From positions 1 to 9,649 of IMG/VR virus record IMGVR_UViG_2660238600_000001: a stretch of DNA of 9,649 nucleotides; one strand, given 5' to 3'. The DNA comes from a virus (lineage: Duplodnaviria; Heunggongvirae; Uroviricota; Caudoviricetes). The notes below the pieces were generated by a model. That model was not told the DNA's origin, searched no databases, and saw nothing but the letters and a program-made list of their open reading frames with translations. Both the position numbers and the translations under genes were made by a program. Below, piece after piece: positions 1-9,649 of this stretch (position 1 is the first letter of the stretch; each line of letters starts with the position of its first letter).

Positions 1-231
1 ATCATTTGCGGGTGCATGGCCCGTCTGAAAAAGAACAACAGCGATTTGCATGATTTATTAGTAGATTATTATATAGTCGGTATGACATTCATGTCACTGG
101 CAGGTAAGCATTGCTGCTCTGATGGTTATATCGGGAAAAGGTTACAAAAGGCTGAGGGCATAATTGAAGGGATGTTAATGGCATTAGATATCCGGTTAGA
201 GATAGATATCGTTGTTAATAACTCTAATTAA
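1..231 (+). CDS. 3' portion of a Q-like late-gene antiterminator (5' end lies outside the window)
   Basis: Frame 1 is open from base 1 ([20 protein letters not shown]...HCCSDGY...) to TAA at 229-231. Cys/His-rich as expected for zinc-binding Q proteins; lies directly upstream of the porin and lysis cassette as in DLP12-type prophages. Identity rests on recollection and synteny only. Confidence 0.45.
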
Positions 232-264
232 TACGCCAATTATTTACTAAAAGTTATTAAAAAT

Positions 265-288
265 GGGGCGTTGAAGCGCCCCCAAAAA
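265..288 (-). terminator. Intrinsic terminator read on the minus strand, downstream of the porin gene
   Basis: Stem GGGGCG (265-270) / CGCCCC (277-282) with 6-nt loop; on the minus strand the hairpin is followed by ATTTTT. No T-run on the plus strand. Confidence 0.4.
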
Positions 289-322
289 TAAAGGGTAATA
301 TATAACAGAAGGTTTGTATAGT

Positions 323-409
323 TAGAAGCAAGGTTGTGCTTCTAAAGGAAGTGGCTTGAGGGAGCCACTTATATGTTGGGGAGGCAAAGCCTCCCACAAC
401 ATATCTTTT
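323..409. other. Three consecutive perfect stem-loops between the Q-like ORF and the porin 3' end; the last may act as a plus-strand terminator
   Basis: Hairpins at 323-344 (8-bp stem), 349-370 (8-bp stem) and 371-404 (about 14-bp stem with one bulge), the last followed by CTTTTA at 405-410. Confidence 0.35.
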
Positions 410-419
410 AGTAATCAAA

Positions 420-1502
420 TTAGAACTGGTAAACCATACCTACAGCAACGATATCATCGGTAGCAACGCCAGATGCTTTCGTGAAATCGCTCTTATCAAT
501 CAGGTTGATTTTGTAGTCAACAAAAGTGGACATATTTTTGTTGAAGTAATAGGTTGCACCTACATCAACATATTCAACCAGGTCCTGATCACCCCAAACA
601 CCCAAGTCTTTTCCTTTAGAATGCAGGTAAGCAACGGATGGACGCAGGCCGAAGTCGAACTGATATTGTGCAACAGCTTCGAAGTTTTGTGCTTTGTTGG
701 CAATATGGTTATTACCAAAAACAGTCATGTTCTGGGTTTCAGAATAGGTGGTGGCCAGATAGATGTTGTTCGCATCATATTTCAGACCAGCTGCCCATAC
801 TTCAGCATTTTGACCAGAAGCATTCAGACCGTTGTTACCGAGGATAACCTGATTATTAGTGCGATCAGATTTAGCATAGGTTGCACCCACGCCGAATCCT
901 TCATACTCATAAGTAGTTGAGAAACCGAAACCATCGCCATTAGCTTCAGTTACTTCATTTCGGTCATTTTTGCCCTGATACTGAGCTGCAAAGTTCAGGC
1001 CATCAACCAGACCAAAGAAGTCGTTGTTACGATAAGTTGCAACACCTGTGGTGCGACCAGTCATGAATACATCTGTTTGGGTCCAGGTATCGCCACCGAA
1101 TTCTGGCAGAACGTCGGTCCATGCACCAATATCGTATGCTACACCGTAGTTACGGCCATAATCGATGGAGCCGTAGTCACCGAATTTCAGGCCAGCGAAG
1201 GCAAGACGGGTTTTATCTTTGGAGGAACCTTGAGATTCAGCGCGGTTGCCTTTGAATTCATATTCCCACTGACCGAAACCAGTCAGTTGATCGTTGATTT
1301 GGGTTTCACCTTTGAAGCCAAGACGGGCATAAGTAGTATCACCATCATCTGCATCATTAGAGGAGAAGTAGTGCTTAGCATTAACTTTCCCGTACAGATC
1401 CAGCTTGTTACTGTCTTTATTATAAATTTCAGCTGCCTGAGCAGACATCGCCATCAGTACTGATGCAGCTACAGCAGAAATTGCCACTGTTAATTTTTTC
1501 AT
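420..1502 (-). CDS. nmpC: Outer-membrane general porin, NmpC/OmpD/Lc subfamily of the OmpC/OmpF/PhoE family (prophage-borne)
   Basis: 360-aa minus-strand ORF from ATG at 1502-1500 to TAA at 422-420. Signal peptide [23 protein letters not shown], then [16 protein letters not shown], internal PEFGGD loop motif, and C-terminal ...VAVGMVYQF ending in Phe. The track's longer ORF adds 17 upstream codons with no signal-peptide logic. Confidence 0.9.
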
Positions 1503-1900
1503 CGTGAGACCTTTTTTTGAACATTTATTAAAAAATGATGCCCTGCGCGACAAATATTCATCTAATCAATGTGATTAATTCAAGATGTAAGTTTTAGATT
1601 CTTATTTAAATTGTGATCTAGATCTCTATTTTTATCTGAACTTTTTCTAATGCATGCTGTGCATGACTATTCTCTGAAAGAAAATAAATTTGGTAGCTAA
1701 ATTATATTAAAGGTTGTTATTTATAAGTGTTCTATAATTCATCTCTTTAATTTAAATTCACTGAAAATAACGTCGGAAATTATTTAATGATTATTTGTTT
1801 ATTTTTCCTTATGTGATTGTGGTGGTGTTTTGAACACTCGATATCATTCTCACAAATATTGTTTAGAGGTTTACGTACGTAAAAAATTGGTTATGCTGTT
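1503..1900 (-). promoter_or_regulatory. AT-rich upstream regulatory region of the porin gene (promoter not pinned down)
   Basis: About 400 bp of markedly AT-rich DNA with A/T tracts immediately 5' of the porin start. No unambiguous -35/-10 pair could be assigned by eye. Confidence 0.3.
1870..1897 (+). promoter_or_regulatory. Candidate sigma70 promoter; possible late-promoter (pR'-like) equivalent
   Basis: TTTACG (1870-1875), 16-bp spacer, TATGCT (1892-1897), about 30 bp upstream of a strong intrinsic terminator. Functional assignment is inference. Confidence 0.25.
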
Positions 1901-1927
1901 AAGAGTGGTTACTTCGCCACACAGCTT

Positions 1928-1953
1928 AAACCCGCCGTCGAGCGGGTTTTTTT
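1928..1953 (+). terminator. Rho-independent terminator (tR'-like position)
   Basis: AAACCCGC (1928-1935) / GCGGGTTT (1943-1950) stem with 7-nt loop, followed by a run of seven T (1947-1953). Confidence 0.6.
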
Positions 1954-2076
1954 GTACCTGTAAACCTGGTGCAGTACGGTAAACACGCTGGTGGTCGTGA
2001 ATACTGACTTTTTATCTTGCTGGCTTTTTAGACAAGAGTTATTGGTATGTCATGTTAACCATGAAGGTAAAAAGAC

Positions 2077-2271
2077 ATGCTAAAACAGCTAGATATGACA
2101 GAAACGGCGAAAGTTGTTTTTAATGAATTAAACGGCAAACCGGCAACAGTCGGGGAGATTGCACAAAACACATACCTTTCACGCGAACGCTGTCAGTTAA
2201 TACTGACCCAGCTGGTTATGGCGGGGCTGGCAGATTACCAGTTCGGCTGTTACAGACGCCTTCAGCAATGA
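2077..2271 (+). CDS. Small hypothetical protein (64 aa) with helix-turn-helix-like core
   Basis: ATG at 2077 with AAGG 9 nt upstream; segment ATVGEIAQNTYLSRERCQLILTQLVMAGL looks like a (winged) HTH. No family recognised. Confidence 0.5.
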   Translation: MLKQLDMTETAKVVFNELNGKPATVGEIAQNTYLSRERCQLILTQLVMAGLADYQFGCYRRLQQ

Positions 2272-2420
2272 AGGGCTTTTAATTTGTGAAAATGGGCGGC
2301 TGGTGGGTGTTGGTAGCACCTGCCAGCCATTCGCTCATGCTTACTGGTCACAAGCGAACCACGGCCCACTGCTTTAGCGCAAAAGCAGAGTGAGCCTACC
2401 AGAGTTACGCTTACTGATCC

Positions 2421-3473
2421 ATGAAAAATACTGTGAAAATAAACAGTACTGATTTAATCAACGCTGATTGCCTGCATTTTATTCAGTCCCTGCCTGATGA
2501 TTCCATTGACCTGATTGTTACCGATCCGCCGTACTTCAAGGTGAAACCCAACGGTTGGGACAATCAGTGGAAAGGGGACGAAGATTACCTGAAGTGGCTG
2601 GACCACTGTCTGGCTCAGTTCTGGCGGGTGCTGAAACCTGCCGGAAGCCTTTACCTGTTCTGTGGACATCGCCTCGCATCTGATATCGAGATCATGATGC
2701 GTGAACGTTTCAACGTTCTTAACCATATTATCTGGGCGAAGCCGTCCGGACGATGGAACGGGTGTAATAAAGAAAGTCTGCGCGCATATTTTCCCGCAAC
2801 AGAACGCGTTCTGTTTGCTGAACATTACCAGGGACCATATCGCGGCAAAAGTGACGGCTATGCGGCAAAAGAAAGTCAACTCAAACAGCACATAATGGCA
2901 CCGCTGATTTCGTATTTCAGGGATGCTCGTGCCGAACTGGGTATAACGGCAAAACAGATTGCCGAAGCCACTGGTAAGAAAAATATGGTTTCCCACTGGT
3001 TTGGTGCCAGTCAGTGGCAGTTGCCGAATGAGGCTGACTACCGGAAGTTGCAGGCACTGTTTTCCCGTATAGCGGCAGAGAAATTTCAGGAACAACAACT
3101 GGAACAACCACACCACCAGCTGGTGGCATCTTATGATTCACTGAATCGCAAATATTCTGAATTGCTGGATGAGTTTAAAACTCTCCGGCGCTATTTCTCC
3201 GTATCAGTTTCCGTGCCTTATACCGATGTCTGGACGCATAAACCCGTTCAGTTCTACCCGGGTAAACATCCGTGTGAGAAGCCTGCGGATATGCTCCGGC
3301 AAATAATCAGTGCCAGTAGTCGACAAGGCGATCTGGTTGCTGATTTCTTTATGGGATCCGGTTCCACAATAAAAGCGGCAATGGCGCTGGGGCGTCGGGC
3401 GTTAGGTGTTGAACTTGAGTCAGAGCGGTTTAATCAGACGGTGAAAGAGGTAAGTGAACTGGTGGGGAAATAA
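2421..3473 (+). CDS. Orphan DNA methyltransferase, beta-class amino-methyltransferase (N6-adenine or N4-cytosine)
   Basis: 350-aa ORF. Catalytic motif IV DPPY near the N-terminus (LIVTDPPYF) and AdoMet motif I near the C-terminus (DLVADFFMGSGST), i.e. beta-class order. No restriction endonuclease gene is adjacent. Confidence 0.9.
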   Translation: MKNTVKINSTDLINADCLHFIQSLPDDSIDLIVTDPPYFKVKPNGWDNQWKGDEDYLKWLDHCLAQFWRVLKPAGSLYLFCGHRLASDIEIMMRERFNVLNHIIWAKPSGRWNGCNKESLRAYFPATERVLFAEHYQGPYRGKSDGYAAKESQLKQHIMAPLISYFRDARAELGITAKQIAEATGKKNMVSHWFGASQWQLPNEADYRKLQALFSRIAAEKFQEQQLEQPHHQLVASYDSLNRKYSELLDEFKTLRRYFSVSVSVPYTDVWTHKPVQFYPGKHPCEKPADMLRQIISASSRQGDLVADFFMGSGSTIKAAMALGRRALGVELESERFNQTVKEVSELVGK

Positions 3474-3480
3474 TTCTGGT

Positions 3481-3506
3481 GGCCACGTTGCGTGGCCTTT
3501 TTATTT
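3481..3506 (+). terminator. Rho-independent terminator after the methyltransferase gene
   Basis: GGCCACG (3481-3487) / CGTGGCC (3491-3497) stem with 3-nt loop, followed by TTTTTATTT. Confidence 0.55.
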
Positions 3507-3549
3507 CCAACACAGCACCCGCAAATATCGCGAGGTGAGAGATGACGAA

Positions 3550-3885
3550 ATGCCTCATAACCCAAATACCTGGCCGGACTGGCTGGAGTTGTTTCAGAGC
3601 TGGTGGCGTGGAGATACGCCGCTGGGCGCAGTGATTATGTCGATTGTTATGGCTGGTTTGCGCATCGCCTATTTTGGCGGTGGTGGTGGCTGGAAGCGAA
3701 AAACGCTCGAGATTTTGCTATGTGGCGCTCTGACGTTGACCTTTGCATCCGCGCTTGAGTATGTCGGATGGCCTAAATCGCTTTCTGTTGCCATTGGTGG
3801 TGGGGTGGGGCTGATCGGTGTCGATGCTATTCGTGGGGCTGCAATGAGAGTAATCGGTAACAAGTTTGGTAGCTCGAAGGAGTAA
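3550..3885 (+). CDS. Holin, lambda S-like class I (three predicted transmembrane segments)
   Basis: ATG at 3550 preceded by GAGGTGA; three hydrophobic stretches (LGAVIMSIVMAGLRIAYF, TLEILLCGALTLTFASALEYV, LSVAIGGGVGLIGVDAI) and a charged C-terminus; directly upstream of R. The track's 3454 start would put the terminator hairpin inside the coding region. Confidence 0.7.
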   Translation: MPHNPNTWPDWLELFQSWWRGDTPLGAVIMSIVMAGLRIAYFGGGGGWKRKTLEILLCGALTLTFASALEYVGWPKSLSVAIGGGVGLIGVDAIRGAAMRVIGNKFGSSKE

Positions 3886-3888
3886 TTT

Positions 3889-4365
3889 ATGCAGGTACTA
3901 AATTCCCAGCGTAAAGCTTTCCTGGATATGGTTGCATGGTCAGAAGGAACGGATAACGGGCGACAACCGACACGTAACCACGGTTATGATGTTATTGTCG
4001 GTGGTGAACTGTTTACTGATTACTCCGATCACCCTCGCAAACTTGTCACGCTAAACCCAAAACTCAAATCAACAGCAGCCGGACGTTACCAGCTTCTTTC
4101 CCGTTGGTGGGATGCCTATCGTAAGCAGCTTGGCCTGAAAGACTTCTCTCCGAAAAGCCAGGACGCTGTGGCATTGCAACAGATTAAAGAGCGTGGCGCT
4201 TTACCGATGATTGACCGCGGTGATATTCGTCAGGCAATCGACCGTTGCAGCAATATCTGGGCTTCATTGCCGGGCGCTGGTTATGGTCAGTTCGAGCATA
4301 AGGCTGACAGTCTGATTTCAAAATTCAAAGAAGCAGGCGGAACGGTCAGAGAGATTGAGGCATGA
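3889..4365 (+). CDS. R: Endolysin, lambda R-type lytic transglycosylase
   Basis: 158 aa, nearly collinear with lambda R as recalled ([22 protein letters not shown]...[24 protein letters not shown]...). The catalytic Glu of the WSEGT motif is present. Confidence 0.92.
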
Positions 4366-4820
4366 GCAGAGTCACCGCGATTATCTCCGCTCTGGTTATC
4401 TGCATCATCGTCTGCCTGTTATGGGCTGTTAATCATTACCGTGATAACGCAATCGCCTACAAAGAGCAGCGCGATAACAAGGCCAGTGAACTGGAGAAGG
4501 CGAACGCCACCATCGCTGACATGCGGAAGCGTCAACGTGATGTAGCAGAACTCGACGCAAGATACACAAAGGAGCTTGCTGATGCTAACGCGACTATCGA
4601 AAGTCTCCGTGCTGATGTTTCTGCTGGGCGTAAGCGCCTGCAAGTCGCCGCCACCTGTGCAAAGTCAACGACCGGAGCCAGCGGCATGGGCGATGGAGAA
4701 AGCCCAGGACTTACAGCAGATGCTGAACTCAATTATTACCGTCTCCGAAGTGGAATCGACAAGATAACCGCGCAGGTTAACTACCTGCAGGAATACATCA
4801 GGACGCAATGCCTGAAATAA
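4362..4820 (+). CDS. Rz: Rz inner-membrane spanin (i-spanin)
   Basis: ATGA start/stop overlap with R; N-terminal transmembrane segment [23 protein letters not shown] followed by a charged coiled-coil region; closely lambda Rz-like. Confidence 0.9.
4582..4767 (+). CDS. Rz1: Rz1 outer-membrane lipoprotein spanin (o-spanin), embedded in the +1 frame of Rz
   Basis: ATG at 4582 with AGGAG 8 nt upstream; lipoprotein signal with lipobox (LLGVSAC), then a proline-rich segment ([15 protein letters not shown]). The track's TTG start at 4576 is less likely. Confidence 0.8.
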
Positions 4821-4851
4821 TTTTTTTGCAAATCACAAAGTCCATTTAATG

Positions 4852-4877
4852 AGCCTCGCGATGCGGGGCTTTTTTTA
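4852..4877 (+). terminator. Rho-independent terminator after the lysis cassette
   Basis: AGCCTCGC (4852-4859) / GCGGGGCT (4863-4870) stem with one G-U pair, followed by TTTTTTT (4870-4876). Confidence 0.6.
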
Positions 4878-5025
4878 CATCTGAATTTCACAGCGCATCT
4901 CACGCGCATATTACATCACCCGAGCCTTTCAGAAAGTTGAGCCTGAGAACTGCCGTATATGGTGGCGACCATCTCGGGGCGGCTTTTCTGTGAGACAGGC
5001 TCACTTTCTAAAAGGTAAAGACGCT

Positions 5026-5514
5026 ATGAACCAATTAGAAGAAAAGCTTCAAAGAATGATTTCCTTATACAAGGAAGATAACTGCCAAAAAGTTCCTGAA
5101 AACATCGCAGAGTTAATGGAATTGGCAAGTGAATTTTCTGGCATGCTTAAGTCGTCAGGTGTTCGGTCAGCGTTCTTTGTTGAAATGCTGATGCACGGCG
5201 GACTTATGGCAACAATGAGACGTGTAATGGAAGACCAGAGAAAAGAACCTCCTCAGGTATACGTTTTGTCATCGAAGAAAACTGGGCTAACCAAAATTGG
5301 GTATTCATCCAACATTCCACAACGCATCAAATCGCTTGGCAACTCTGGACCAGACTGCTTGAAGCTTGAGTGCCTGATCCCTGGTGGAAGAGAAACTGAA
5401 AACATGCTTCATCGCAAATTTGCCGCAAAGAGAAAGCACGGTGAATGGTTCGCCCTGTCCAAGGATGACATTGAGGGATTGAAATCTGTAGCGATTACTT
5501 CTGATGGCTATTAA
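5026..5514 (+). CDS. T5orf172 (GIY-YIG superfamily-like) domain protein with an unassigned helical N-terminal region; moron at the lambda bor position
   Basis: ATG at 5026 with AAAGG upstream, 162 aa. C-terminal half carries the T5orf172-type pattern: VYVLSS...GLTKIGYS...RIKSL...LKLECLIPGGRETENMLHRKFAAKRKHGEWFAL. The N-terminal 90 aa matches nothing I recognise. Confidence 0.7.
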   Translation: MNQLEEKLQRMISLYKEDNCQKVPENIAELMELASEFSGMLKSSGVRSAFFVEMLMHGGLMATMRRVMEDQRKEPPQVYVLSSKKTGLTKIGYSSNIPQRIKSLGNSGPDCLKLECLIPGGRETENMLHRKFAAKRKHGEWFALSKDDIEGLKSVAITSDGY

Positions 5515-5554
5515 TGCTTGTTTAGAGCAATTTTCATAACAACTCTTCATTACA

Positions 5555-5583
5555 AAGCCCATCTACTGGTGGGCTTGATAATG
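5555..5583. repeat. Hairpin-GATAATG element, copy 1
   Basis: AAGCCCA (5555-5561) / TGGGCTT (5570-5576) stem with 8-nt loop, immediately followed by GATAATG (5577-5583). Confidence 0.4.
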
Positions 5584-5828
5584 AAACCGTGATTTACATC
5601 CCCACAATCCGGGTATGTAAAAGATAGTTCAGGCGAGAACGGATTTAACTAAATCTGTGCGCCACCAGTTAACGGCAGTACCACGAAACAACCCAAGCCA
5701 GTAAGTGGGGAAATAACACCGGCAGCCACTGAAAGATGAACCTCCTGCCTTATGGCAAAAAAGATTCTTTGTGGTGGCGGACTGATGGAAAGACATCCTA
5801 ATTTCAGCCAAACATTGAAGGAGTTGTT

Positions 5829-5900
5829 ATGTCAGCAGAAGGTTTCAATAACCCATCAAAATTCCGGGATGAGTGGGATAGCAGCGTAAAGAGTAAGTGA
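5829..5900 (+). CDS. Very short ORF (23 aa) with strong ribosome-binding site; coding status uncertain
   Basis: GAAGGAG (5817-5823), 5-nt spacer, ATG 5829: MSAEGFNNPSKFRDEWDSSVKSK. Its TGA overlaps the ATG of a 12-codon ORF (5900-5938, MPSQKPFPTEWL) as TGATG. Confidence 0.2.
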   Translation: MSAEGFNNPSKFRDEWDSSVKSK

Positions 5901-5910
5901 TGCCATCACA

Positions 5911-5943
5911 AAAGCCATTCCCTACAGAGTGGCTTTGATAATG
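5911..5943. repeat. Hairpin-GATAATG element, copy 2
   Basis: AAAGCCA (5911-5917) / TGGCTTT (5930-5936) stem with 12-nt loop, followed by GATAATG (5937-5943). Stem differs from copy 1 by compensatory changes while the 3' heptamer is conserved. Confidence 0.4.
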
Positions 5944-6192
5944 GCTTATACCCTACACGGGATAACTTAACTGATATCCCTTTTAAAGGATAAAGGTATT
6001 CAAGCCTGACACATCATGCGCTGTATCGTCGCCGTATTCCCGTATTAACAGAGACCGTAGCCCGACGGGGAACTCCTTCTGCGCGAGTGTGTGGGAATAA
6101 TCAAAAACGATGCACACCGGGGTTACCGGGTACACATATTTCATCATGCCAGCGAGTCCGGTTCTGGCACGGAAGAAACCGGACGTTATGAT

Positions 6193-6603
6193 TTAGTGCG
6201 GAAATATTTGTGTAGTGTTCTGAATGTTCTCAGTAAAGAGTAATGAATTATCAAAGGTATAGTAATACCTTTTGTTTTCGTGGATATTTGTAATCCATCT
6301 GAAAACCCCTGCAGTAGCAAGATTTTTCCTGTATTCGTAAAATGATAACTCTCCTGATTTGAATCCTTTTAAGGTGGCTTCTATAAGGCATTTATTTTTT
6401 GAAAATCTTACATTTACAACCTTACCCTGTCCTTTTATTAAAACCGTATTATCGTTTTCAAGAACAAGATGAATATTCTCTGTGGCTAAATAGTAAATGT
6501 AATGTGAGACATTGTGACGTTTTAGTTCAGAATAAAACCAGTGATAGTTTAAATTATTTCGCACTTTATCGAATATTTGTTTAAAAATGGCAACCTGAGC
6601 CAT
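6193..6603 (-). CDS. AT-rich hypothetical protein, 136 aa (YbcV / DUF1398-like by recollection)
   Basis: Start at ATG 6603 (MAQVAIFKQ...) preferred over 6618 because GGAAGG lies 8 nt upstream on the minus strand. Markedly lower GC than flanking genes; Tyr/Asn/Lys-rich. Family assignment is from memory of the equivalent DLP12/lambda right-arm ORF. Confidence 0.6.
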
Positions 6604-6659
6604 TGTAGTACCTTCCATGTGATATGAGGGGTGTAGTCTGCACGATTATCTAAATTGCT

Positions 6660-6893
6660 TCAATCTGGTCTGATCTGTTTTCTGAGCAATTCAGTAATGT
6701 CACTCTTTTCTTTGTTTGCTTCAGGAGAAACTCTTTTTTCTGAGCACAGTCTCCGGCGGCAGGCTTCAATGACCCAGGCTGAGAAATTCCCGGACCCTTT
6801 TTGATCAAGAGCGATGTTAATTTGTTCAATCATTTGGTTAGGAAAGCGGATGTTGCGGGTTGTTGTTCTGCGGGTTCTGTTCTTCGTTGACAT
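6660..6893 (-). CDS. Ribbon-helix-helix (Arc/MetJ/CopG-like) putative DNA-binding protein, 77 aa
   Basis: Basic N-terminus then RNIRFPNQMIEQINIALDQKGSGNFSAWVIEACRRRL, i.e. a beta-strand / helix / helix layout like Arc. ATG at 6893; weak RBS. Confidence 0.6.
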   Translation of the reverse strand: MSTKNRTRRTTTRNIRFPNQMIEQINIALDQKGSGNFSAWVIEACRRRLCSEKRVSPEANKEKSDITELLRKQIRPD

Positions 6894-7062
6894 GAGGTTG
6901 TCCCGTATTCAGTGTCGCTGATTTGTATTGTCTGAAGTTGTTTTTACGTTAAGTTGATGCAGATCAATTAATATGATACCTGCGTCATAATTGATTATTT
7001 GACGTGGTTTGATGGCGTAGATGCACGTTGTGACATGCAGATGATAATTATTATCATTTTGC

Positions 7063-7262
7063 GGGTCCTTTCCGGCGATCCGACAGGTTACGGGGCGGCG
7101 ACCTCGCGGGTTTTCGCTATTTATGAAAATTTTCCGGTTTAAGGCATTTCCGTTCTTCTTCGTCGTAACTTAATGTTTTTATTTAAAATATCCCCTGAAA
7201 AGAAAGGAAACGACAGGTGCTGAAAACGAGCTTTTGGGCCTCTGTCGTTTCCTTTCTCTGTT
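7063..7262 (+). other. Lambda-type cos site: cosQ (about 7063-7069), cosN with 12-nt cohesive-end sequence GGGCGGCGACCT (7093-7104), cosB with R3/I1/R2/R1 (about 7145-7258)
   Basis: ...GGGTCCTTTCCGGCGATCCGACAGGTTACG | GGGCGGCGACCTCGCGGGTTTTCGCTATTTATGAAAATTTTCCGG... matches the recalled junction of lambda right and left ends. Repeated R-site cores at 7145-7162, 7202-7217 (inverted) and 7242-7258, with an A/T-rich bend site between. Confidence 0.85.
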
Positions 7263-7281
7263 TTTGGCCGTGGAATGAACA

Positions 7282-7827
7282 ATGGAAGTCAACAAAAAGC
7301 AGCTGGCTGACATTTTCGGTGCGAGTATCCGTACCATTCAGAACTGGCAGGAACAGGGAATGCCAGTTCTGCGAGGCGGTGGCAAGGGTAATGAGGTGCT
7401 TTATGACTCTGCCGCCGTTATAAGATGGTATGCCGAAAGGGATGCTGAAATTGAGAACGAAAAGCTGCGCCGGGAAGTTGAAGAACTGCGGCAGGCCAGC
7501 GAGACAGATCTCCAGCCAGGGACTATTGAGTACGAACGCCATCGACTTACGCGTGCGCAGGCCGACGCACAGGAGCTGAAAAATGCCAGAGACTCCGCTG
7601 AAGTGGTGGAAACCGCATTCTGTACTTTCGTGCTGTCGCGGATCGCAGGTGAAATTGCCAGTATTCTCGACGGGATCCCCCTGTCGGTGCAGCGGCGTTT
7701 TCCGGAACTGGAAAACCGACATGTTGATTTCCTGAAACGGGATATCATCAAAGCCATGAACAAAGCAGCCGCGCTGGATGAACTGATACCGGGGTTGCTG
7801 AGTGAATATATCGAACAGTCAGGTTAA
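7282..7827 (+). CDS. nu1: Terminase small subunit Nu1
   Basis: 181 aa, near-identical to lambda Nu1 as recalled (MEVNKKQLADIFGASIRTIQNWQEQGMPVLRGGGKGNEVLYDSAAV...); N-terminal winged HTH; overlaps A by 26 nt as in lambda. Confidence 0.95.
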   Translation: MEVNKKQLADIFGASIRTIQNWQEQGMPVLRGGGKGNEVLYDSAAVIRWYAERDAEIENEKLRREVEELRQASETDLQPGTIEYERHRLTRAQADAQELKNARDSAEVVETAFCTFVLSRIAGEIASILDGIPLSVQRRFPELENRHVDFLKRDIIKAMNKAAALDELIPGLLSEYIEQSG

Positions 7828-8056
7828 CAGGCTGCGGCATTTTGTCCGCGCCGGGCTTCGCTCACTGTTCAGGCCGGAGCCACAGACCGCCGTTGAATGG
7901 GCGGATGCTAATTACTATCTCCCGAAAGAATCCGCATACCAGGAAGGGCGCTGGGAAACACTGCCCTTTCAGCGGGCCATCATGAATGCGATGGGCAGCG
8001 ACTACATCCGTGAGGTGAATGTGGTGAAGTCTGCCCGTGTCGGTTATCTCCGGTGA
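7802..8056 (+). pseudogene. A: Terminase large subunit A, N-terminal remnant (about 82 codons, then a 2-codon out-of-context tail)
   Basis: MNISNSQVNRLRHFVRAGLRSLFRPEPQTAVEWADANYYLPKESAYQEGRWETLPFQRAIMNAMGSDYIREVNVVKSARVGY matches the lambda A N-terminus; after VGY the frame reads LR-stop. The ATPase and nuclease domains are absent. Confidence 0.85.
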
Positions 8057-8075
8057 GCCGGAGGAGTATTTCCGG

Positions 8076-8675
8076 ATGTCGCCGGAGGACTGGCTGCGGG
8101 CAGAAATGCAGGGTGAGATTGTGGCGCTGGTCCACAGCCACCCCGGTGGTCTGCCCTGGCTGAGTGAGGCCGACCGGCGGCTGCAGGTGCAGAGTGATTT
8201 GCCGTGGTGGCTGGTCTGCCGGGGGACGATTCATAAGTTCCGCTGTGTGCCGCATCTCACCGGGCGGCGCTTTGAGCACGGTGTGACGGACTGTTACACA
8301 CTGTTCCGGGATGCTTATCATCTGGCGGGGATTGAGATGCCGGACTTTCATCGTGAGGATGACTGGTGGCGTAACGGCCAGAATCTCTATCTGGATAATC
8401 TGGAGGCGACGGGGCTGTATCAGGTGCCGTTGTCAGCGGCACAGCCGGGCGATGTGCTGCTGTGCTGTTTTGGTTCATCAGTGCCGAATCACGCCGCAAT
8501 TTACTGCGGCGACGGCGAGCTGCTGCACCATATTCCTGAACAACTGAGCAAACGAGAGAGGTACACCGACAAATGGCAGCGACGCACACACTCCCTCTGG
8601 CGTCACCGGGCATGGCGCGCATCTGCCTTTACGGGGATTTACAACGATTTGGTCGCCGCATCGACCTTCGTGTGA
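8076..8675 (+). CDS. K: Tail tip assembly protein K (JAMM/MPN plus NlpC/P60 domains), apparently full length
   Basis: ATG at 8076 with GGAGGAG 9 nt upstream; 199 aa; JAMM motif HSHPGGLPWLSEAD and NlpC/P60 Cys region GVTDCYTLFRDAYHLAG. Length and the 103-nt overlap with I match my recollection of lambda K. Confidence 0.8.
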   Translation: MSPEDWLRAEMQGEIVALVHSHPGGLPWLSEADRRLQVQSDLPWWLVCRGTIHKFRCVPHLTGRRFEHGVTDCYTLFRDAYHLAGIEMPDFHREDDWWRNGQNLYLDNLEATGLYQVPLSAAQPGDVLLCCFGSSVPNHAAIYCGDGELLHHIPEQLSKRERYTDKWQRRTHSLWRHRAWRASAFTGIYNDLVAASTFV

Positions 8676-9118
8676 AAACGGGGGCTGAAGCCATCCGGGC
8701 ACTGGCCACACAGCTCCCGGCGTTTCGTCAGAAACTGAGCGACGGCTGGTATCAGGTACGGATTGCCGGGCGGGACGTCAGCACGTCCGGGTTAACGGCG
8801 CAGTTACATGAGACTCTGCCTGATGGCGCTGTGATTCATATTGTTCCCAGAGTCGCCGGGGCCAAGTCAGGTGGCGTATTCCAGATTGTCCTGGGGGCTG
8901 CCGCCATTGCCGGATCATTCTTTACCGCCGGAGCCACCCTTGCAGCATGGGGGGCAGCCATTGGGGCCGGTGGTATGACCGGCATCCTGTTTTCTCTCGG
9001 TGCCAGTATGGTGCTCGGTGGTGTGGCGCAGATGCTGGCACCGAAAGCCAGAACTCCCCGTACACAGACAACGGATAGCCGCGCTGACAGACAATACGCA
9101 GGGGGCAGCAGGTCTTGA
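8573..9118 (+). pseudogene. I: Tail assembly protein I, truncated (about 170 N-terminal residues, then an unrelated 12-residue tail)
   Basis: MAATHTLPLASPGMARICLYGDLQRFGRRIDLRVKTGAEAIRAL...[19 protein letters not shown] follows lambda I, then diverges ([13 protein letters not shown]-stop); lambda I is about 223 aa by recollection. Confidence 0.75.
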
Positions 9119-9122
9119 GTTA

Positions 9123-9649
9123 TACGAGGTGTATAACAACGGATATCCAACAGCGTATGGAAATATCATTCACCTGAAAGGGATGACAGCCGTTGGCGAA
9201 GGTGAGTTACTCATCGGCTGGAGTGGTACAAGCGGTGCTCATGCTCCGGCATTTATTCGTTCACGACGGGATATGACCGGCGCAAACTGGTCGCCGTGGG
9301 CGCAGCTTTACACCTCGGCTCATCCTCCTGCAGAGTTTTATCCAGTCGGTGCACCAATCCCGTGGCCATCAGATACCGTTCCGTCTGGTTATGCCCTGAT
9401 GCAGGGGCAGACTTTTGACAAATCTGCTTACCCGAAACTTGCAGCCGCTTATCCGTCAGGCGTGATCCCTGATATGCGTGGCTGGACGATTAAGGGCAAG
9501 CCCGCCAGTGATCGAGCCGTATTGTCTCAGGAACAGGACGGCATTAAATCACACACCCACAGCGCCAGCGTATCCAGTACGGATTTGGGGACGAAAACCA
9601 CATCGTCGTTTGATTACGGCACTAAATCCACGAATAACACTGGTGCGCA
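9123..9649 (+). pseudogene. Side tail-fibre C-terminal fragment (Stf-like), no own start, continues beyond the window; left boundary approximate
   Basis: Frame 0 reads ...[62 protein letters not shown]...[76 protein letters not shown]...[13 protein letters not shown]. The last two thirds match the lambda Stf C-terminal module as recalled. Confidence 0.65.

Follow-up and report, generated by a model that had tools for sequence, protein, structure and literature searches.

What an orphan DNA methyltransferase does for a phage, and how the phage keeps such an enzyme in check, is the question raised by a 9,649-nt stretch of DNA from a virus of the class Caudoviricetes (IMG/VR record IMGVR_UViG_2660238600_000001, positions 1 to 9,649), referred to below as the window. 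Between a porin gene and a holin gene it carries a small open reading frame (ORF) encoding 64 amino acids, a gene for a 350-residue methyltransferase with DPPY and FxGxG motifs and a terminator, all of which an earlier note on this DNA had placed correctly. The account judged probable here is that the methyltransferase is an enzyme of the M.EcoGI/M.EcoGII type, expressed as a late gene dependent on the antiterminator Q, silent in the lysogen and directed against restriction, and that a structured RNA leader in front of it probably contributes to holding it off until lysis. The leader fills the gap between the two ORFs, which is no mere spacer; the earlier note missed the conserved RNA within it. 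Coordinates of all features are collected in Table 1.

The 350-residue protein matches the Pfam family PF01555 (N6_N4_Mtase) over residues 29–341, scoring 143.8 bits (E=1e-41) where 26.7 would suffice. The DPPY motif occupies residues 35–38 (nt 2523–2534) and is followed by FMGSG at residues 310–314 (nt 3348–3362), an order that places the enzyme in the beta class. Both motifs are unchanged across an 11-member family alignment that includes relatives down to 48% identity. M.EcoGII is colinear with the window protein over its full length, including the central target-recognition region, with 282/349 residues identical and 2 gaps (about 81%), and the reconstructed ancestor Anc291 is about 88% identical, both values being approximate since the two reference sequences were machine-read from the supplement of PMC11551740 and contain a few misread residues. 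The enzyme of phage 1720a-02 is likewise 81% identical and colinear over its full length, while the home of the window allele is the SfV/mEp460/cdtI clade, at 97–98% identity. The solved structures retrieved by sequence comprise only distant beta-class enzymes (RsrI, CcrM and MboIIA) in which the central region is unmatched, and they are of no use for predicting specificity. In PADLOC the methyltransferase gave generic 'MTase_II' matches only and the small ORF gave no match.

Non-specific N6-adenine methylation is the activity expected of the window enzyme by homology, because the proteins that have been tested (M.EcoGII, Anc291 and Anc284) bracket it in sequence. M.EcoGI and M.EcoGII are prophage enzymes of E. 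coli O104:H4 C227-11, and in vitro M.EcoGII can modify as many as 99% of adenines; its constitutive expression is harmful, neither enzyme leaves methylation in the native lysogen, and the protection of phage DNA from restriction is the published interpretation of its role, in agreement with one of the functions proposed in the earlier note (Murray et al. 2018, PMC5778455). The 1720a-02 enzyme was described in the same work as 'very similar' to M.EcoGII (PMC5778455). Anc291 and the more divergent Anc284/SUPREM methylate DNA and RNA largely without site specificity and with no discernible motif (PMC11551740). The target specificity, given as unknown in the earlier note, is therefore a question that the literature had already answered: at about 81% identity to M.EcoGII, homology points to a non-specific adenine methyltransferase. 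Taken alone the gene brings nothing new: it is an ordinary further instance of an enzyme that has been characterised and is extremely common among prophages.

The breadth of this activity also brings in RNA as the possible substrate in vivo in place of phage DNA, with late N6-methyladenine (m6A) marks set on host or phage RNA and possibly on the leader of the enzyme itself. M.EcoGII and its relatives methylate single-stranded RNA as well as RNA:DNA hybrids in vitro (PMC5778455, PMC11551740), but M.EcoGII is weaker on RNA than on DNA, protection of DNA from restriction has been demonstrated and the locus holds no pointer specific to RNA, which makes this explanation extremely unlikely.

The 150-nt gap between the two ORFs is conserved above either gene and is recognisable even in N15. 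Three sequence blocks within it lie at fixed distances to the methyltransferase start codon, with TGGGCG at about −129, GCCCA at −57 and GAGCYTA at −29. The window sequence folds with a minimum free energy (MFE) of −55.4 kcal/mol (z=−3.4) into a three-way junction, formed by the closing helix P0 and the hairpins P1 and P2, followed by the hairpins P3 and P4, and the segment UGAUCC (2415–2420) adjoins the AUG of the methyltransferase. When divergent relatives from Yersinia, a Hafnia phage, N15 and phiKO2 were each folded alone the same three-way junction was obtained. A covariance model built from 18 sequences finds the leader in 78 loci, including Vibrio ST2-1pr (E=2e-8) and Aeromonas PhAER-1 (E=1e-5). 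RNAalifold applied to a plain MAFFT alignment recovered P0, P1 and fragments only, because insertions and deletions in P1 and P2 misalign the helices.

The paired positions covary. Changes on both sides were found in 29 of the 34 pairs, against a shuffled mean of 15.9 (none of 500 shuffles reached 29) and 7–15 in slid controls, and the cells of the alignment changed on both sides numbered 176, against a shuffled mean of 47.3 and 21–48 in slid controls. The percentage of paired cells is inflated by an alignment fitted to the model, but the slid controls share this alignment. Many of the pairs are G–U and are compatible with the sense strand only. An exchange of this kind had been noticed before any model was built, in one Mixta locus where TGAGC...GCTCA stands in place of TGGGC...GCCCA. 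Rfam 15 (4227 families) gave no match to the window at E<=1, returned only a chance mir-365 match at E=4.4 for a 201-nt stretch and matched none of nine divergent leader loci, and a search of the literature with leader sequence strings found no paper. The leader RNA is new in being absent from Rfam 15 and from the papers searched, and its structure is well supported.

The leader is also tied to a single gene family. When the three-block pattern was run against viral contigs, 81/81 of the matches read precede this methyltransferase, and in nearly all of them the start codon follows 23 nt after GAGCYTA. The leader equally lies upstream of MLNTVK-type alleles, whose N-terminus is that of M.EcoGII, and it is a dedicated 5' element of this methyltransferase family. 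In one viral contig (L116, about 2146–2260) the leader is joined straight to residue 286 of the methyltransferase through an internal deletion of the gene. In the Photorhabdus and Xenorhabdus loci (L070–L097, about −100 to −1) the small ORF is kept and the leader is shortened and diverged, with a P1-like hairpin and a covariance score of at most 22 bits.

An improbable alternative for the stretch 2285–2420 is that it acts as a DNA-level site (an operator or a recombination site), as a gene for a small peptide or as an independent small RNA. A 35-codon ORF (product MKMGGWWVL...) is readable in several loci, but single-base insertions and deletions between close relatives disrupt every reading frame. 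The stretch does lie at a module junction and contains two GATC sites in many of its versions; against a role as DNA, compensatory changes occur in four helices and the frequent G–U pairs would become A–C on the other strand. The fixed distance to the start codon and the exclusive linkage to one gene family also speak for a leader. A free-standing small RNA may nonetheless be encoded here, since neither P3 nor P4 has a U-tract after it.

The immediate surroundings of the start codon suggest what the leader may do. The methyltransferase AUG has no Shine-Dalgarno sequence and an in-frame stop codon lies two codons upstream of it. In the window, 1720a-02, N15 and phiKO2 the leader is immediately preceded by a terminator U-tract, and such a tract can be made out at this place in many further loci among those listed. 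The P2 loop and 3' strand, GGUCACAAGCG (2346–2356), is complementary to CGCUUACUGAUC (2408–2419), a segment that ends one base before the AUG and overlaps P4, so that the same 3' strand serves both pairings. Both pairings are conserved: the P2 loop and 3' strand are paired with 2408–2419 in 84% of cells, against 21–44% in slid controls, and P4 is paired in 81%, against 35–53%. In Providencia the complementarity is kept by other sequences, UAGAUCACGGA with UCCCUGAUCUA, in VHML and Serratia the alternative pairing spans the AUG, and in Vibrio ST2-1pr eight perfect pairs run across the AUG of the next ORF. Gating or tuning of translation initiation by alternative pairing of the pre-AUG segment is the most likely role of the leader, and the chances of this being correct are about evenly balanced. 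By our own observation UGAUC could pair with the 3' end of 16S rRNA, an end that GGUCAC/GAUCAC resembles.

A bolder proposal would make the leader a new class of cis-regulatory RNA for non-specific adenine methyltransferases, in which the three-way junction acts as a sensor for a factor made late in infection and, on sensing it, makes the pre-AUG segment change partners, P4 being one and the P2 strand the other. Candidate factors would be a small molecule such as S-adenosylmethionine or S-adenosylhomocysteine, the methyltransferase itself through m6A autoregulation, or the 64-residue protein as a Com-like RNA-binding activator. This extension is regarded as doubtful.

A parallel for control at this level is offered by two of the more distant loci. 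In Vibrio ST2-1pr (L013, 2359–2468) and Aeromonas PhAER-1 (L014, about 2362–2550) an unannotated short ORF lies between the leader and the methyltransferase, and both short ORFs match PF10122, the zinc ribbon of Mu Com, with 26.2 and 34.5 bits respectively (cut-off 22.9). These loci thus present a com-plus-methyltransferase operon within a beta-class family. Com is the translational activator of the toxic mom gene of phage Mu. In Mu-like prophages Com-like genes precede unrelated alpha-class non-specific adenine methyltransferases (PMC3299994). Such enzymes thus come repeatedly under post-transcriptional control, and a regulatory role for the leader is therefore plausible. These relatives also show the small partner gene to be interchangeable: Enterobacterales have a winged-helix-like version, Vibrio and Aeromonas a Com-like one, and many loci have none. 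M.EcoGII is a widely used reagent for chromatin footprinting and RNA engineering, and no description of how phages silence it or switch it on was found in the papers searched, including a search on antitermination. The leader precedes the family from E. coli to Vibrio, Aeromonas and N15-like phage-plasmids and offers a concrete handle on its regulation; it would add a second example, beside Mu com-mom, of the post-transcriptional gating of genome-wide DNA modification.

The position of the gene bears on the timing of its expression. Among 5426 complete E. coli genomes, 2465 contain at least 80% of the 1.7-kb cassette, and further carriers are SfV (orf47/orf48, 96% nucleotide identity), mEp460, cdtI, phiP27, 1720a-02 and many Stx2 phages. 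Homology between the window and cassette-less phages with Q and the porin (ev243 and others) stops at 1951, and similarity to the methyltransferase modules of SfV type sets in at 1929; the tR' terminator therefore forms the 5' border of the module. Cassette-free isogenic backbones are known from ev243 and GPEC1189, and in a DLP12-type prophage of the same backbone the terminator region runs straight into its own holin. The annotated relatives examined were lambdoid phages from Escherichia, Shigella, Citrobacter, Hafnia, Morganella and Serratia, two linear phage-plasmids (N15 and phiKO2), VHML and other phages of Vibrio, and phages of Aeromonas, one of them P2-like. In all of these except phiO18P, where it stands between holin and muramidase, the methyltransferase is the immediate 5' neighbour either of the lysis genes or of stx, behind which the lysis genes follow. 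The order Q, tR', cassette, terminator and lysis genes is shared by SfV, mEp460, phiNP and the Hafnia and Morganella phages, N15 and phiKO2 show terminator, methyltransferase, terminator and lysis genes, and in phiP27 and 1720a-02 the stx genes come after the methyltransferase.

Three terminator-like sites lie along this part of the window. The last of them has a 7-bp stem at 3481–3497 with 6 G–C pairs, GGCCACGTTGCGTGGCC, followed by TTTTTATTT. In SfV the sites homologous to tR' and to this terminator are both annotated as terminators, and N15 and phiKO2 possess equivalents of the latter. The second site, abutting the leader, is weaker in the window and strong in 1720a-02 (GCCTTCAGTCCTGAAGGC and then T6). 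Downstream of 3506 the genes for holin, endolysin and Rz have no promoter of their own, and a consensus scan found no sigma-70-like promoter inside the cassette, either in the window or in 1720a-02. In lambdoid late operons, terminators are read through by Q-modified polymerase. Since the lysis genes lack a promoter, the terminator at 3481–3506 must be read through by Q-modified polymerase, which makes the cassette a component of the late operon. The earlier description of a self-terminated cassette is thus right as to the presence of the terminator and misleading as to function. Status as a late gene also fits the published silence of M.EcoGII in lysogens.

The same evidence bears on the epigenetic role in the lysogen that the earlier note offered as its second option. 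On that explanation the enzyme would be a sequence-specific orphan methyltransferase of the Dam or CcrM kind, expressed in the lysogen and acting on host or prophage genes, as orphan beta-class enzymes such as CcrM do. There are partial matches to the NCBIfam equivalogs CcrM and PRK11524, but their scores fall far under the cut-offs (67 bits against 830 and 110 against 292) and both fail. The conserved TTGCTG...AGAGTTA block upstream of the small ORF could be an unrecognised promoter; the gene nevertheless sits behind tR' and the second terminator, without a recognisable sigma-70 promoter, and always in company with lysis genes. Its closest characterised relatives, moreover, are non-specific (PMC5778455, PMC11551740), and M.EcoGI and M.EcoGII leave the native lysogen unmethylated (PMC5778455). 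An epigenetic function is thus very unlikely. In the block itself TTGCTG (2017–2022) and AGAGTTA (2035–2041) are invariant from E. coli to Morganella phages, and neither a sigma-70 promoter, by consensus scan, nor dyad symmetry was detected there.

The preferred explanation, a late anti-restriction enzyme, can be followed through the phage cycle. Among the large genes of the Q-dependent late operon the methyltransferase comes first, with tR' on one side and the lysis genes on the other. As long as the phage is lysogenic, transcription begun at the late promoter would end at tR' and at the second terminator and the enzyme would remain silent, a start codon without a Shine-Dalgarno sequence, 3' of a folded leader of about 135 nt, possibly making a further contribution to this silence. 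Upon induction, Q-modified RNA polymerase would pass all three terminators, the enzyme would appear a short time ahead of lysis and would methylate most adenines in the phage DNA that had been replicated. In the next host the packaged genomes would be resistant to many adenine-sensitive restriction systems of Type I, II and III. The leader would act in cis and most likely set or gate the initiation of translation.

Several points weigh against this explanation or parts of it. The complementarity between P2 and the pre-AUG segment is missing in the Hafnia phage, in Yersinia, in N15 and phiKO2 and in another enterobacterial locus, its covariation is modest, and the MFE fold leaves the AUG region open, so that sequestration of the start site is not the default state. 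Because leaders do not differ between loci with and without the 64-codon ORF, its product is probably not a partner that the leader requires. As to the enzyme, the divergence of about 19% from M.EcoGII, itself approximate given the reading errors in the M.EcoGII and Anc291 reference sequences, could in principle alter the specificity of the window allele. Finally, the prophage is defective and its Q gene is cut by the edge of the window, and the methyltransferase may never be expressed in this particular copy.

The 64-codon ORF is real and conserved, with 274 protein clusters at 90% identity. The profile phrog_331 matches the window ORF at E=1e-33, the mEp460 allele at 5e-26 and N15 gp51 at 6e-28. 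The PGAP/NCBI pipeline names the product 'TrmB family transcriptional regulator', and the Pfam TrmB match is sub-threshold (E=0.004). The AlphaFold (AF2) model displays three helices in helix-turn-helix (HTH) order with a mediocre pLDDT confidence score of 68, and a Foldseek comparison of the model with the PDB gave no match at E<1. The conserved stretch S-x3-C-Q-L-I-L-T-Q-L-V-M-A-G-L resembles, in our reading, the recognition helix of a winged helix with its 'GL' turn. From these weak profile matches and this pattern the protein is probably a minimal winged helix. It contains two cysteines and has no match to PF10122, the zinc ribbon of Com.

Two alleles of the small ORF, about 50% identical to each other, can be distinguished, an SfV/Stx2a type and an mEp460/cdtI type, and they are shuffled relative to the methyltransferase clades. 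The methyltransferase of mEp460 is 97% identical to that of the window, yet the adjoining small ORF (L004, 4147–4350) is of the other allele. Among 94 methyltransferase loci the leader is accompanied by the small ORF in 47 and stands alone in 28, a further 16, from Photorhabdus and Xenorhabdus, have the small ORF with the shortened and diverged leader, and 3 have neither. The small ORF is thus missing in 28/75 of the loci that keep leader and methyltransferase. A model in which the leader requires the 64-residue protein was rejected as the main model, as leaders are alike with and without the ORF and the two 50%-identical alleles adjoin identical leaders. The winged-helix-like protein appears to be a frequent but dispensable companion.

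The earlier note had likened the small protein to the controller (C) protein of a restriction-modification system, and the locus would then be a remnant or variant of such a system in which the 64-residue protein times the methyltransferase. A small, helix-rich and probably DNA-binding protein is indeed encoded just upstream on the same strand, and its ORF is linked to the methyltransferase in 63/94 genomic loci and 75/81 viral matches. Nevertheless the analogy fails. The protein has no match to an Xre-type HTH (HTH_3 or HTH_31) and its only TrmB match is the sub-threshold one, no inverted repeat of at least 8 nt that could serve as a palindromic C-box operator occurs in 1957–2076, and a terminator separates the ORF from the methyltransferase, which together with its leader does without the ORF in the 28 loci counted above. 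In N15, moreover, gp51 lies upstream of an annotated putative late promoter and appears to belong to another transcription unit. By the annotation of the relatives inspected, no restriction nuclease was found in the window or beside the methyltransferase in related loci (about 170), and the orphan status proposed earlier is thus borne out. The GIY-YIG gene downstream of Rz was considered as cognate nuclease and rejected, being present in DLP12-type prophages that lack the methyltransferase. A controller role is accordingly held to be improbable.

Comparison with known systems places the cassette among several relatives. M.EcoGII and M.EcoGI share with the window enzyme the length class (349–350 residues), the beta-class motif order, the prophage location and, before MLNTVK-type alleles, the same leader; about 19% of residues differ between M.EcoGII and the window allele, which belongs to the SfV/mEp460/cdtI clade and whose activity would follow by homology. 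SfV orf47/orf48 and mEp460 carry the same cassette at 92–96% nucleotide identity, and phiP27 (L23/L24) and the Stx2 phages carry it at about 80%, in each case at the same place after Q and tR'. In contrast to the SfV-type phages, the window has a DLP12-like backbone with the porin gene between Q and tR', and in Stx phages tRNA genes and stx, not the holin, follow the cassette. In N15 (gp51/gp52), phiKO2 and PY54 the methyltransferase is 55–60% identical and is found with a phrog_331 small protein, the same leader, flanking terminators and lysis genes downstream, whereas N15 has its small gene upstream of both the annotated late promoter and the terminator and not between terminator and leader. 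The start of N15 gp52 (L011, 2501–3589) is annotated at 2735, while homology and the leader put it at 2501; the annotated start thus appears too late, and the annotated protein would lack about 78 N-terminal residues including DPPY.

Mu com-mom and the com genes paired with Hin1523, Hia5 and Nma1821 likewise concern a late function, toxic and broadly adenine-modifying, by which phage DNA is protected (PMC3299994). Mu com-mom resembles what is proposed for the window locus in its layered off-control, which includes translation through mRNA structure, and a genuine Com-like gene is found before the Vibrio and Aeromonas relatives. The differences are that no Com-like zinc-ribbon gene exists in the window, that Mom does not belong to the methyltransferases, that Hia5 and its kin are of the alpha class, and that the leader has no known counterpart in Mu. 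C proteins of the C.PvuII and C.AhdI type are similar in being small and helix-rich and encoded just upstream of a modification gene; the window differs from them in the lack of a nuclease, of an Xre-type fold signal and of a C-box, in the intervening terminator and in the dispensability of the protein in many loci. With riboswitch-like leaders built on a three-way junction, the window leader shares a helix that closes over a pair of hairpins, nucleotides conserved in junction and loops and, beside the start codon, a 3' segment able to pair in two ways that exclude each other. It differs in having neither a terminator-type expression platform nor an Rfam match.

Table 1. Features of the window and elements of the methyltransferase leader RNA (positions are those of the window)
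Feature	Positions	Strand	Evidence or remark
Antiterminator Q gene, 3' end (QuuD/DLP12 type)	16–231	+	Pfam PF06530 Phage_antitermQ, E=6e-18; quuD annotated in the same backbone
OmpC/NmpC-like porin gene	420–1553	−	Profile searches
tR'-type intrinsic terminator	1928–1956	+	8-bp stem (site called 1928–1949) and T7 run; SfV annotation
Conserved non-coding block TTGCTG ... AGAGTTA	2017–2052	+	Columns unchanged among phages from E. coli, Citrobacter, Hafnia and Morganella
64-residue ORF, phrog_331	2077–2271	+	Profile match
Second terminator-like hairpin and U-rich tail	2259–2285 (hairpin called 2259–2274)	+	Overlaps the stop codon of the 64-residue ORF and abuts the leader
Structured 5' leader RNA	2285–2420	+	Fold, covariance model and covariation
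P0, closing helix of the three-way junction	2293–2297/2364–2368
P1 hairpin, in the junction	2298–2311/2315–2328
P2 hairpin, in the junction	2330–2335/2353–2358
P3 hairpin	2369–2375/2382–2388
P4 hairpin	2389–2395/2409–2415
350-residue beta-class N6-adenine DNA methyltransferase, M.EcoGI/M.EcoGII family	2421–3473	+	PF01555; identities
Intrinsic terminator, methyltransferase/holin gap	3481–3506	+	Terminator scan; SfV annotation
Lambda-family holin S	3550–3885	+	TIGR01594, E=1e-36
Endolysin	3889–4365	+	RefSeq annotation of the same sequence
Rz	4362–4820	+	PF03245
GIY-YIG/T5orf172 gene	4990–5514		After Rz
Two small genes		−	Between the GIY-YIG gene and the terminase
Small terminase subunit Nu1/NohD	7282–7827
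Large terminase gene, truncated	7802–8675		Fused at about 8050 to K/I-type tail genes

Taken as a whole, the window is the late region of a lambdoid, DLP12-like prophage from E. coli or Shigella. None of the complete E. coli genomes compared spans all of it, and the best match covers 83%. About 84 codons of the large terminase gene are left, after which lambda K- and I-like tail genes follow, and the head genes are all gone, as are most of the tail genes; from this deletion and the terminase fusion the prophage is concluded to be defective. The holin starts at ATG 3550 rather than at GTG 3454, as in the RefSeq annotation of the same sequence, and a tRNA scan found no tRNA genes in the window. 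Downstream of the porin gene the minus strand contains two strong hairpins, at 265–282, with a T-run, and at about 330–400. Rfam gave no match in this region (232–420), which is presumably where DLP12 encodes the IpeX small RNA. The GIY-YIG gene has a weak PADLOC match to the candidate defence family PDC-S57. In Serratia phage OS31 (L016, 2215–2276) a weak Rfam match to IsrK (27 bits, below the gathering score) lies upstream of the leader and may correspond to a short pR'–tR' transcript.

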